From an uncultured Nitrososphaeraceae archaeon (GTDB lineage: Archaea > Thermoproteota > Nitrososphaeria > Nitrososphaerales > Nitrososphaeraceae), in NCBI GenBank assembly GCA_963825865.1, contig CAWGVG010000028.1:32001-96000 (forward strand): 64,000 bases of DNA, in the 5' to 3' direction. Under the pieces are notes generated by a model. That model worked only from the letters and a program-made list of their open reading frames with translations, had not been told where the DNA came from and made no database searches. Made by a program: the position numbers and the translations under genes. This document shows positions 5,775-33,174 of this stretch, piece by piece. Position 1 is the stretch's first letter; each line of letters opens with the position of its first letter.

Positions 5775-6176
5775 TTGAGTTTGCAGATTAATTGTCGGAA
5801 AATCGTAGGAGGAAATGGTAAAGGGAAAGCACTTGTTACAAAACAGCCAATTAACTTTCTTGCAATGGTAGATACAAAACAAGGTGCTATCAACTATCGA
5901 AACCACGAATTGTTTGGCAAAGATATGAAAGATAGTGTTTTGGTCTTTCCAAACGCTGTAGGAAGCAGTGTCGGCGCATATACTATATACTCCTTGAAAT
6001 CAAATGGAGTAGCGCCTATAGCAATAGTATGCATTAACAAGGCGGACATAATAACAGCCTCTGGTTGTGCGATTTCAAACATTCCCTTTGTAGATATGTT
6101 AGATATATCAATATCTTCCTTAAAATCAGGATCGGAAATCAGCGTTGATGCAGATAATCAAATAATAATAATATAA
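5775..6176 (+). CDS. Aconitase X swiveling-domain subunit (DUF126), putative phosphomevalonate dehydratase small subunit
   Basis: GKALVTKQPINFL, VLVFPNAVGSSVG and APIAIV; abuts the large-subunit gene. Confidence 0.88.
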   Translation: MSLQINCRKIVGGNGKGKALVTKQPINFLAMVDTKQGAINYRNHELFGKDMKDSVLVFPNAVGSSVGAYTIYSLKSNGVAPIAIVCINKADIITASGCAISNIPFVDMLDISISSLKSGSEISVDADNQIIII

Positions 6177-6210
6177 ACAGTTTAATTTTGGAATATCAAG
6201 AATATTTTTA

Positions 6211-6287
6211 TCTCGGTGCACGGCATTTGATGGGCGAACCGACCGCCTCTTAGTAGCGGAATGACGATCAAAGTCCATGCACCGAGA
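6211..6287 (+). ncRNA. Candidate kink-turn / box C/D-like small RNA
   Basis: GC-rich island with a 10-bp terminal stem (TCTCGGTGCA/TGCACCGAGA), an inner stem (TTTGAT/ATCAAA) and an apical CCGC/GCGG stem flanked by CCGA and ATGACGA; followed by a T5 tract. Strand is inferred. Confidence 0.55.
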
Positions 6288-6495
6288 AACTTTTTGGTAA
6301 CAGAAAGATTTTCTATAATTGATGTAGTATTTATAAAGAAATTCTGATAACTTTAGAACTACAATATGGCATATTTACACTTTTTCTATTGCGATGTATT
6401 ATGTGTGGGCTCCTAGTTCATAAGTTAGATCGATACTCAAAGTTGGTTAGCATAGTGAAAGGGTTTAATATCCTAATAATCGCATTGGTAATGAT

Positions 6496-6939
6496 TTGGA
6501 ACAAAAAGCATCTTCTGTTGAAGATATTATTAATGCATTAGCTGAACTTGAAAAAGATATGGATAATCTTAATTCTAAGGTGGAGGAAATGAGAAAACGT
6601 ATTATCGTTTATTCTGACGATGAAGTTGAAAAGTTGAAACAACAGATAATTACAATTGCTAACGAGGAGGCAAAAAAAATCGTCGATAGGGCAAAGACAG
6701 AAGCCGAAATTGAATCATCTATGATTGTTAAAGAAGCGGATAGACGCCTTGGAGATATTAAAAAAAATATAGATTCCGCGTCTTACAAGGCAGTAGACAG
6801 CATTGTCAGAATAATTCTGGGTGACACTATTACTTCTAATATACAACAAACGGTGCATGATGATGTTTCAAAAGATACTGAAGGGACTCTAAAGAAAATA
6901 AAGAAATATACTTCAGAAGGAAAGTCGGTAGAAGGTTAA
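6496..6939 (+). CDS. Coiled-coil protein resembling A/V-ATPase peripheral stalk subunit H/G
   Basis: Heptad-rich helix with EEAKKIVDRAKTEAEIE and AVDSIVRIILG; not in an ATPase operon here. Confidence 0.45.
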   Translation: MEQKASSVEDIINALAELEKDMDNLNSKVEEMRKRIIVYSDDEVEKLKQQIITIANEEAKKIVDRAKTEAEIESSMIVKEADRRLGDIKKNIDSASYKAVDSIVRIILGDTITSNIQQTVHDDVSKDTEGTLKKIKKYTSEGKSVEG

Positions 6940-13309: not shown

Positions 13310-13768
13310 GAATGACGAAACTTTCCCTTAACGATAATTTAAAGTATAGTAAAGATTTGTAAGATGAACGCTATTTAAATTACTAATCTAATCTAATGCT
13401 TTGTATGAAGTGGAACAGACTTGACTGATAAGCAAGGTCAGCAAAGGCAACAAGAATCTATGTAATTTATCACGACTAAGGACGATAACTACAAAGTGGG
13501 TAGGTAATCAAGCATGATACGTAACAATGAAAATGGATTGTTTTAGTTGTTACTTTGAATTCATTTCAACAATCTCAAAACCTGTATGCCAAGAATGCGG
13601 TTTTTGCTTTCTTTCTTAACTATTTCTATTGTTGTACCTACTCTTGCATTGTTATCAACACCAAATGCAATAAGGACGTAAAAGATAATAATTAACAAGT
13701 CGGTAAAATGTTGTATTTCAAAGCTAAAATACAGTTAGATTTATCGCCATGTTTACGGAATATAAAAT

Positions 13769-13891
13769 ATGCACACTTGTGAATCTTGTGGCAGGGTTAG
13801 GTTTTATTCATTGAACTTTATCTTTTCAAAATCCATATGCAATGAGTGCTACATGTTAATGACAGAGAAAGAAAAGTCAAATGAGAAGTGA
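13769..13891 (+). CDS. 40-aa CxxC-CxxC zinc-finger microprotein (not in ORF track)
   Basis: MHTCESCGRVRFYSLNFIFSKSICNECYMLMTEKEKSNEK*. Confidence 0.5.
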   Translation: MHTCESCGRVRFYSLNFIFSKSICNECYMLMTEKEKSNEK

Positions 13892-23744: not shown

Positions 23745-23873
23745 GGAGGGGTAGCGAAGCCTGGTTAAACGCGCAGGACTCAAGATTTCATATAAATATT
23801 CTGCGTAAGAGGGGAATTGTTATGGGTAATCCCGTCCCTTAGGGGTTCGTGGGTTCGAATCCCACCTCCTCCA
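23745..23873 (+). tRNA. tRNA-Leu(CAA) with a 44-nt intron (23785-23828) at position 37/38
   Basis: Acceptor GGAGGGG/CTCCTCC, CAA anticodon, long variable arm, TTCGAAT T-loop; bulge-helix-bulge motif CTCA/TGGG with AGA and TAA bulges. Confidence 0.95.
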
Positions 23874-31710: not shown

Positions 31711-33174
31711 TTAAACTACAGACTCGAGTTTAATTTTTGGATATCCTGATGATCTATCCGTCACAATCGCGAAAAGATGTGTCCATGGAAGAATTGATTG
31801 CAAAAATAAGGTGCCATTCATTATTACGAGCTTCAGATGTATGTCATATGCTCCAGATAAGTGTTCTAGTATATTTTGAGAATGCTGGACTACTAACAGC
31901 GAAAGGTCAGTATTTGCTCTAATGAAGGGTATTATCTCCGTTTTATTAATTTGCCCATGTTTACGCATATTTTGATACATGTCTATGTCCATTATATTCA
32001 ACAAAATTTTTTCTGGATGCTCTTGCCTTGTTTTAAGTACAATATTGCGAAAAAATTCAAAGCGTTTCTCAAAATCATTGCAGTTATGATATGGTATTAT
32101 ATAATCTGATGATACTTCAACTTTATCAGCAGGACAGAAAATTTTAACTAGACCATTTTTGGGAGCGGCAGGCAGATGTGATTCTAGATAGGAGATTACT
32201 GTGCTAGGATCAAACCCATCGAATGATTGAAATAAAATCGGATTACAGGTTGTAACAAAGTTTGATATAATTCTGGCTAAAAATGTCATGGTCACCCTTG
32301 TATTGATATATGAGTCTGTTTCAACAAGTACGACGCCTTTCTTTGGAAATCCTCCTCCCAGCGCAATATCTAATCCTTGGTATCCACTTGCAATGTAAAA
32401 GTCTTCAGAAAGTGGTGTTATTTTCTTTTCTAGCTTGTTAAATGAGATTCTTGGGTTACAAGTTATCACAAACTCTGTTGGCTGATAAGCATTGTAGCTG
32501 CGGAAGAAACCATTGTTAAGTGTATAAATATATGATGGTTTGTTTATTCTAACTCCACGTAATTTTGAAAGGAAAATTTCTCTTATCCTCATATTATCAT
32601 AGAATTTCTGTCCTAACTCTACTATTCCATCAACAAGAAAATCAAGTGTCGTGTCTTTTGGATCTTCACTAATAAAAATTAATTTAGCGCCTGCCCTTTC
32701 GCGCCAAGTCTGTAATACGCGTTCGTTATTTAATCGTGCTTCTTTATCCATAAAAGATGCAATGGCATCCCAGCTATCGATAATGATTATTGGCGCCTTA
32801 ACATCCATCAGTTGATTTGTAATTCTTTCAAAAAGTGATTCGGGTTCATCAAGGCGTGCATCTTCAAAACTTGATAAATTATATCCTTGCTCTGATGTTT
32901 CATCTGGTCCTGATGTCTTTGATTGTTCAATGAACTTGCCAAGCCATGGATAATATAGAAAAAGTTGCTTCGGAGAAAGCCTAGTAGAAATATAGAAAAA
33001 GTTGTTTTTAATCTTTAATGCTCTCAGAATACTAAGCGAGAGAGTAGTCTTACCTGTCCCTGCATACCCTTTGATAAGCAGAGAATATGTGTTGCGCTGA
33101 ACGAACTGCATAAGTTCATAAGGAATATGGATTGATCTTTCAATCTGTTGCTTATTCCTAGGCCTCTTTAGCAT
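31711..33174 (-). CDS. GvpD-like / KaiC-RAD55 superfamily two-domain P-loop protein
   Basis: Walker A GYAGTGKT, Walker B IIIDSWD, LDFLVDGIV and KLRG. The second domain (SGYQGLDIALGGGFPKK) lacks a Walker A. Confidence 0.8.
   Translation of the reverse strand: MLKRPRNKQQIERSIHIPYELMQFVQRNTYSLLIKGYAGTGKTTLSLSILRALKIKNNFFYISTRLSPKQLFLYYPWLGKFIEQSKTSGPDETSEQGYNLSSFEDARLDEPESLFERITNQLMDVKAPIIIIDSWDAIASFMDKEARLNNERVLQTWRERAGAKLIFISEDPKDTTLDFLVDGIVELGQKFYDNMRIREIFLSKLRGVRINKPSYIYTLNNGFFRSYNAYQPTEFVITCNPRISFNKLEKKITPLSEDFYIASGYQGLDIALGGGFPKKGVVLVETDSYINTRVTMTFLARIISNFVTTCNPILFQSFDGFDPSTVISYLESHLPAAPKNGLVKIFCPADKVEVSSDYIIPYHNCNDFEKRFEFFRNIVLKTRQEHPEKILLNIMDIDMYQNMRKHGQINKTEIIPFIRANTDLSLLVVQHSQNILEHLSGAYDIHLKLVIMNGTLFLQSILPWTHLFAIVTDRSSGYPKIKLESVV

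Follow-up and report, generated by a model that had tools for sequence, protein, structure and literature searches.

A sequence downstream of an AcnX swivel-domain gene in an uncultured Nitrososphaeraceae archaeon can fold into a long hairpin, and the question is whether this hairpin is an RNA gene and, if so, on what the RNA acts. The window (the whole stretch of 64,000 nucleotides that was analysed, positions 32,001 to 96,000 of contig CAWGVG010000028.1) carries it on the forward strand. The original prediction read it as an unannotated structured RNA with a C'/D'-type kink-turn and no outer C box, possibly an atypical guide RNA or an L7Ae-responsive 3'-UTR element. All the described parts were recovered in the sequence, namely a structured RNA gene of ~77 nt at window positions 6211-6287 (+), its outer and apical stems, the CCGA word, the 3-nt bulge, GACGA, the T5 tract, and the distance of 35 nt from the end of the swivel-domain ORF at 6176. 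The two upstream ORFs correspond to AcnX and the AcnX swivel domain in Pfam. The elements of the locus are as follows.

6180..6189, + strand: TATA-like putative promoter box GTTTAATTTT, centred ~27 nt 5' of the first base of the closing helix
6211..6223, + strand: closing helix, 5' strand TCTCGGTGCACGG, pairing with 6275-6287, at the place of a canonical terminal box C
6224..6238, + strand: spacer 1, the predicted guide CATTTGATGGGCGAA, with core antisense 6228-6236 and G6234 as the fifth nucleotide upstream of the D-like box
6239..6242, + strand: D-like box CCGA (family consensus CNGA)
6243..6259, + strand: apical stem-loop, the canonical stem of the kink-turn (CCGC / 9-nt loop / GCGG)
6260..6267, + strand: C-like box, made of the bulge AAU (6260-6262) and GACGA (6263-6267) (family consensus RAU-GANGA)
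6268..6274, + strand: spacer 2, TCAAAGT, A-rich, short and not conserved across the class
6275..6287, + strand: closing helix, 3' strand CCATGCACCGAGA, with the same pairing evidence as 6211-6223
6291..6295, + strand: T5 tract seen in the sequence, a likely archaeal terminator

A scan of positions 5900-6700 against Rfam with E values up to 10 returned nothing on the element, and at gathering score the whole window yielded two tRNAs only. A 129-nt Rfam tRNA match of 40 bits at 23745-23873 (+) was missed by ARAGORN and is probably an intron-containing tRNA. The predicted fold of the + strand has an energy of -33 kcal/mol (z = -3.2), which none of 200 shuffled sequences equalled. The description as an unannotated structured RNA holds. 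The opposite strand reaches a comparable folding energy, and the family model scores it at 28 bits vs 91 bits for the + strand.

The genome from which the window derives (4.98 Mb in 62 contigs, 82% complete) contains one full copy of the RNA, and the MITE-like repeat that had been named as a way for the prediction to fail was thus not seen. BLAST detected homologues in 17 of 24 same-family genomes. A covariance model built from an alignment of 18 homologues matched the + strand once each in 103 of the 151 class genomes sampled; the filters of this search were strict, and weak matches may be missed. The matches are distributed over five families (f1, 3/3; f13, 79/80; f21, 8/10; f23, 10/17; f24, 2/2), and this model gave no match in the sampled genomes of f9 (0/3), f18 (0/9), f19 (0/14), f20 (0/1), f22 (0/8), f25 (0/1) and f26 (0/2). 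A second covariance model, with matches in 24 of 151 genomes in all, produced weaker matches outside the class in three of four f40 genomes and one of two f46 genomes, and none in the other out-of-class families sampled with it. One matching genome, G168, is flagged as unpublished, and no claim made here rests on it. A descriptor scan of the own genome found the RNA itself and one doubtful AT-rich match (reversed-genome control, 0); no second RNA of the same build turned up, so the RNA does not belong to a paralogous family. The hairpin is a real, conserved, single-copy RNA gene, neither a repeat nor a 3'-UTR element.

Covariation across relatives, which had been proposed beforehand as a check, was found in both of the main stems. 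The outer stem (6211-6220/6278-6287) consists of 10 perfect base pairs and extends past a C.A mismatch (6221.6277) to GG/CC at 6222-6223/6275-6276. In the alignment of 35 class-wide sequences, all 13 pairs of this closing helix show compensatory changes and 90.5% of the cells are paired. The proportion of paired cells was 89% vs 27-36% in slid controls, and none of 500 shuffles reached as high a covariation score (both with 35 sequences). The apical stem (CCGC/GCGG, 6243-6246/6256-6259) shows compensatory change in four of five pairs. This stem has shrunk to CC-GCAA-GG in the Nitrosopumilaceae-like family, and in f13 (loci L037-L062 and L138-L148) the canonical stem is made of two C-G pairs and a GCAA/GAAA-type tetraloop.

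The two boxes that flank the apical stem are also conserved. The D-like box reads CUGA in 25, CCGA in five, CGGA in three and CAGA in two of the 35 sequences, and the GAU/AAU bulge followed by a GANGA box is present in 34. All 35 retain the pair between the C of CNGA and the G of GANGA, and among 55 distinct sequences the position facing the N of CNGA is A.U in 20, C.U in nine, U.G in seven, U.A in four, C.C in three, and other combinations in the rest. The arrangement CNGA / stem-loop / RAUGANGA reads in sequence as a box C/D-type kink-turn, with D ahead of C as in internal C'/D' motifs. A second box set was searched for, and neither RUGAUGA nor CUGA occurs at the ends of the helix or beyond them, in the window or in the aligned flanks, as the original description of a C'/D' motif without an outer C box had it. 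Where the helix meets the spacers, reading of the alignments shows no G.A in tandem. The ends of the molecule are a plain helix of 8-16 bp across the homologues.

Between the helix and the boxes lie two spacers of unequal length. Of 55 distinct homologues, 47 have a spacer 1 of 15-18 nt and 41 a spacer 2 of 5-7 nt; together the spacers amount to about 22 nt vs 24 in canonical sRNAs. In the out-of-class f40 forms the spacers are 10-11 and 11-12 nt. The sequence of spacer 2 differs between families and it is probably not a guide. An inner stem (6226-6231/6267-6272) bridging the spacers had also been proposed. It can be drawn in the own sequence, but among 18 relatives none of its six pairs shows a compensatory change and only 69% of the cells pair, and it was rejected as a conserved element. 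Because it does not covary, the idea that the guide is locked away in its own hairpin is not supported. A suggested two-state switch between GGGCG and CGCCU fared no better, as the letters it needs in the apical stem vary across the 18-sequence alignment.

Spacer 1 is a different matter. Numbering its nucleotides from the D-like box towards the 5' end, we find the same letter at guide positions 4-7, 9 and 10 in all 35 sequences. Position 8 is U in 22 and C in 13, position 11 is C in 23, U in eight and A in four, position 3 is G in 30, and position 2 is A in 28 and G in seven. This near-invariant antisense upstream of a D-like box bears out the notion of an atypical guide RNA in kind. Its core, 6228-6236, pairs with own 16S 1339-1347 (CGCCCGUCG; E. 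coli 1400-1408) by seven Watson-Crick and two G.U pairs. The U/C changes at position 8 and, in 31 of the 35 sequences, at position 11 both face a 16S G; the change from A to G at position 2 adds a pair with C1399, and the five sequences without G at position 3 do not pair with C1400. The conserved duplex is only 8-10 bp long. The 16S site (ACACACCGCCCGUCG) is identical in the 23 genomes checked.

A comparison of 16 distinct 11-nt guides with every one of the 4437 windows in own 16S and 23S rRNA gave 16S 1337-1348 as the best site, with a mean energy of -18.1 kcal/mol; the next independent sites reach -13.2 kcal/mol, and the background is -4.4 ± 2.5 kcal/mol. The best tRNA duplex, with the 3' part of tRNA-Arg, reached -15.4 kcal/mol (24 ARAGORN tRNAs). 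A target in the anticodon stem of tRNA-Ala was tried by hand and rejected; it offers 6-7 bp with position 5 facing C31, which is weaker, and we know of no modification there. In the 16S register, G6234, the fifth guide nucleotide, faces own 16S C1341, which corresponds to E. coli C1402. The E. coli numbering was anchored on the E. coli rrs copy by the computed distance to the 1492 primer site. The pairing register and the fifth-nucleotide rule of box C/D guides together give C1402 as the predicted target. In yeast and E. coli this position has an effect on how the reading frame is kept and on which start codon is chosen, and SNORD43 is the human guide for the decoding-centre cytidine. A table in PMC2794176 equates Cm1402 of E. 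coli with yeast Cm1639 (guided by snR70), human Cm1703 and Arabidopsis Cm1641, and the paper describes frameshifting and read-through effects in yeast that lacks the Cm1639 methyl group.

The original prediction had placed the target elsewhere, in 23S helix 92, and methylation 3' of the A loop, instead of or besides C1402 in Nitrososphaeraceae, has to be weighed. The complementarity is real in the own 23S rRNA: 6226-6237 pair with own 23S 2645-2656 (GCUGCUCGCCCAUUAAAG) over 12 bp including one G.U, not over the 14 bp claimed, and the own A loop reads GCUCGCC rather than GUUCGCC. The fifth guide nucleotide would face own C2648, which we take to be E. coli C2558. With the 15-nt spacer of the own RNA, the 23S duplex is even the best one (-18.8 vs -16.6 kcal/mol for 16S), and the site is kept in 24 of 24 genomes save for a C/U change that still pairs with G. 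The extra pairs, however, arise from a U-run that is not conserved. Of 38 distinct guides, 15 have at position 8 a C opposite an invariant 23S A, and most of the other guides have C or A at position 11, again opposite a 23S A; the 24 genomes hold no compensating change at the site. The family-wide mean energy is -13.1 kcal/mol for the 23S site vs -18.1 kcal/mol for the 16S site, and the 23S nucleotide opposite guide position 5 is not known to us to be modified. Since the pairing is broken in many relatives and the 23S site itself is unchanged, helix 92 is not the conserved target, and the conserved partner is the 16S decoding centre. We regard methylation in helix 92 as improbable, with a use as an extra target in Nitrososphaeraceae only being possible.

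A second guide had been proposed in the other half of the molecule, directed at 16S GGUGCAUGG and placed before a second CCGA. The word CCATGCACC is literally complementary to own 16S 980-988, but it belongs to the covarying 3' strand of the closing helix, and the supposed box (6283-6286) is likewise part of that helix. The strand that matches 980-988 changes freely in relatives, so it is not a guide.

The same guide was also found in RNAs of ordinary build. A pattern made of the guide core and CNGA, preceded at 0-5 nt by a word resembling box C, was run on 401 genomes of the phylum and gave 40 places in 38 genomes vs about 12 for the reversed pattern (table count). Inspection of 34 of the 40 places showed nine canonical-looking sRNAs of other Thermoproteota with the guide in the D slot (L154, L156-L160, L172, L180 and L181) and seven with the guide in the D' slot (L185, L186 and L188-L192); L187 is ambiguous and the rest are apparently coding. 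As the pattern fixed the register, the search shows that canonical sRNAs with this register exist and not that others are absent. The D-slot sRNA L154 scores 32 bits against Rfam sR2, for which the gathering score is 42 bits.

These canonical box C/D sRNAs share with the window RNA the core GAYGGGC, its spacing to CNGA and the predicted C1402 target. In L189-L191, which carry the guide in the D' slot, D' and C' are moreover joined by a hairpin, like that of the window RNA. The canonical relatives differ in that both box sets are present, the terminal C/D motif sits on a short terminal stem, the two spacers are ~12 nt each and a second guide is usual; in the window RNA there is a single box set with a single guide, and the helix that closes it is long. 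The second guide of the D'-slot forms matches 16S GGGCUACAAUGG in those genomes. The occurrence of the same guide in the same register inside canonical sRNAs makes the window RNA most likely a derived box C/D guide. Judged from sequence, it looks like a D'-slot form that lost the terminal C/D boxes and the second guide and gained a long closing helix, and the f40 forms look intermediate between the canonical and the helix-closed builds.

In the own genome, a strict four-box pattern detected no canonical sRNA, and a looser scan requiring rRNA complementarity gave 21 matches vs nine in the control. Two of the 21, on contigs C33 (~66650-66725, +) and C48 (~13760-13835, +), look like real canonical C/D sRNAs; each has the boxes C, D' and C', followed by a spacer of 12 nt and box D. 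The D guide of the C33 sRNA, UAUGCACCUCGU, is complementary to own 16S 978-986, that is, to the GGUGCAUGG region. With at least two good canonical candidates in the same genome, the window RNA appears exceptional alongside a normal build.

Compared with the recognised features of C/D guides, the window RNA has one C/D box pair capable of forming a kink-turn, with a covarying stem and the universal C-G pair (35/35), and an antisense element directly upstream of the D-like box with its target at the fifth nucleotide. It is related to recognised C/D sRNAs through the 16 canonical-looking sRNAs of identical guide and register. It carries one box set in place of two, and its spacers depart from the ~12-nt length. 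We therefore file it as a variant of the box C/D guides that falls short of full membership by the two-motif definition.

The TATA-like box may act as the RNA gene's own promoter, to judge from its sequence and position. In the flank listing, a block (C)AGTTTAAWTT stands at the same spacing in many same-family homologues, and a TATA-like block is found ~22-30 nt upstream in other families too. A T-run follows the RNA in only part of the same-family homologues. In the basal families f21, f23 and f24, a tRNA-Ala (CGC or UGC) on the same strand starts ~6-10 nt past the helix in 17 of 17 loci, and this direct succession suggests a dicistronic precursor in which the 3' end of the sRNA would be set by RNase P. 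No tRNA lies within 1.5 kb of the RNA in any of 25 loci from two ammonia-oxidiser families, and the nearest tRNA in the window is 9 kb away. At the f21 loci L063-L070, the sRNA-tRNA-Ala unit is part of a small cluster of ~1 kb with tRNA-Phe(GAA) on the same strand and, at some loci, tRNA-Gly.

Contigs of four soil metatranscriptomes cover 5794-6032 and 6514-6800 in the flanking ORFs and leave the RNA itself uncovered. The ORF downstream of the RNA (6496-6939, +) encodes 147 aa without a Pfam family and is covered by contigs from two soil metatranscriptome runs. In f13 (L037-L062 and L138-L148), a conserved block GGGAACGCTTTTATGGAA within ~30-40 nt past the RNA is probably the promoter of the next gene.

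These observations bear on the readings in which the RNA is not a methylation guide. If the hairpin were a 3'-UTR element acting in cis on the AcnX (mevalonate-pathway) genes, their terminator or an L7Ae-responsive switch for them, or else a repeat of MITE type, this would fit its position 35 nt past the swivel-domain ORF with T5 behind it; the upstream coding end is AcnX-like in several same-family homologues as well. Such a reading nevertheless seems to us scarcely credible: the element is single-copy with one model match per relative genome, has a TATA-like box of its own, precedes tRNA-Ala in all 17 basal loci, lacks an AcnX domain in the upstream 411-aa ORF of the one Nitrosopumilaceae-like locus checked, and is conserved in sequence beyond what a terminator needs. 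The proposal of a 3'-UTR or L7Ae-responsive element of the AcnX genes was dropped on account of the promoter box and the tRNA-Ala neighbour. About as remote is an H/ACA-like pseudouridylation guide with the pocket in the internal loop of an apical kink-turn hairpin. The general shape, a lower stem, a large internal loop and an apical kink-turn, would suit it, but no conserved ACA/ANA stands past the helix, the 3' strand of the loop is short and variable so that no two-sided pocket is formed, no place in the rRNA offers a U-N that both strands could flank, and the boxes are of C/D type with the conserved C-G pair.

More serious, though in our view still unlikely, is an antisense chaperone or checkpoint RNA that binds L7Ae and masks 16S 1400-1408 during small-subunit assembly without catalysis, or whose helix attracts a partner different from Nop5. 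In its favour, the 16S strand that is paired has to become the top of helix 44 at a later stage, and the RNA has only one of the family's two defining motifs. Guide RNAs have been proposed as folding chaperones (PMC7994747), and an RNA-based checkpoint at the 16S 3' end has been proposed for N. equitans (PMC5389701). What weighs against a purely masking role is the exact register of guide to box common to the window RNA and the canonical sRNAs, for which a pure antisense RNA has no need, and the catalytic activity of an engineered equivalent, BMG1 (PMC9670817). We consider it probable that the window RNA guides 2'-O-methylation of 16S C1402 as a box C/D-type guide with one kink-turn.

As a C1402 guide, the RNA would work in the following way, its protein binding, methylation and transcript ends being predicted from its sequence. 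The apical kink-turn (CNGA, short stem-loop, RAUGANGA) would bind L7Ae, which would bring Nop5-fibrillarin, and the terminal C/D kink-turn would be replaced by the plain closing helix of 8-16 bp. Guide nucleotides 3-11 upstream of the box would pair with 16S 1400-1408 in the decoding centre, at the top of helix 44, so placing the fifth guide nucleotide opposite C1402 for 2'-O-methylation by fibrillarin. The short, A-rich spacer 2 would serve as a strut bridging the two protein-binding modules and not as a guide. In the basal lineages, the sRNA would be made from an sRNA-tRNA-Ala precursor with RNase P setting its 3' end.

The own genome encodes fibrillarin and L7Ae, and at its 82% completeness no RsmI was found above cut-off and no RsmH. 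The Nop5 gene (contig C5:131680-132356; L134 1072-2345) is split over three frames with ORFs at 1072-1902, 1835-2071 and 2145-2345, and the fibrillarin gene beside it is intact. The frame splits are most likely assembly indels, and such indels may be the cause of the 82% completeness of the 5-Mb assembly.

The closest known counterpart is BMG1, a Sulfolobus sRNA in which the terminal C/D motif was replaced by a stem and C'/D' was kept (Wang, Yang and Ye, RNA 2022, PMC9670817). In that study, BMG1 is active in vitro, its D' spacer guides site-specific, L7Ae-dependent methylation at position 5, the stem takes over Nop5 binding, and the authors leave the natural occurrence of such RNAs open. The likeness to the window RNA lies in the retained internal C'/D' kink-turn and the exchange of terminal C/D for a stem. 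BMG1 differs in being artificial and in having two 12-nt spacers and a 4-bp stem, whereas the window-type RNAs have unequal spacers (15-17 and 5-7 nt) and a helix of 8-16 bp. The 2'-O-methyl group predicted for the window RNA is installed elsewhere by snR70/SNORD43-type snoRNAs, which are canonical box C/D RNAs, and by bacterial RsmI, a stand-alone protein, both unlike the window RNA. The methylated cytidine is Cm1639 in yeast, Cm1703 in human and Cm1402 in E. coli (PMC2794176; PMC11542601).

Precedents for a rearranged box order and for co-transcription of an sRNA with a tRNA come from Nanoarchaeum equitans, for which Randau (2012; PMC3491384) describes a permuted sRNA24 gene and tRNA-sRNA dicistrons in which a tRNA-processing enzyme sets the end of the sRNA. 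As described there, sRNA24 has all four boxes and needs circularisation, whereas the window RNA has one set; the N. equitans sRNA lies downstream of the tRNA and depends on RNase Z, whereas here, in the basal lineages only, it lies upstream of tRNA-Ala and would depend on RNase P. Among papers outside the subscription journals and supplements, none was found that links Nitrosopumilus, Nitrososphaera or Thaumarchaeota to an RNA of this kind. Archaeal sRNA catalogues (Dennis 2015, Lui 2018) may list canonical guides for this 16S position.

A bolder proposal, for which we claim slightly less than even confidence, is that the window RNA represents the first natural methylation guide built from one kink-turn and a plain helix, an asymmetric RNP with a single L7Ae, descended from a canonical dual guide that lost its terminal C/D motif and second guide, fixed throughout the history of the ammonia oxidisers and dedicated to Cm1402 as the one ribose methylation common to bacteria, archaea and eukaryotes, and that its helix-closed form may also act as a checkpoint on 16S 1400-1408 until helix 44 is formed. 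The RNA illustrates how molecules of this kind evade box-based gene finders and Rfam. It is a candidate natural case of a stem replacing one kink-turn, kept across a class of globally important nitrifiers, and, if the predicted function is true, it names the machinery for methylation of C1402 in the decoding centre of ammonia-oxidising archaea.
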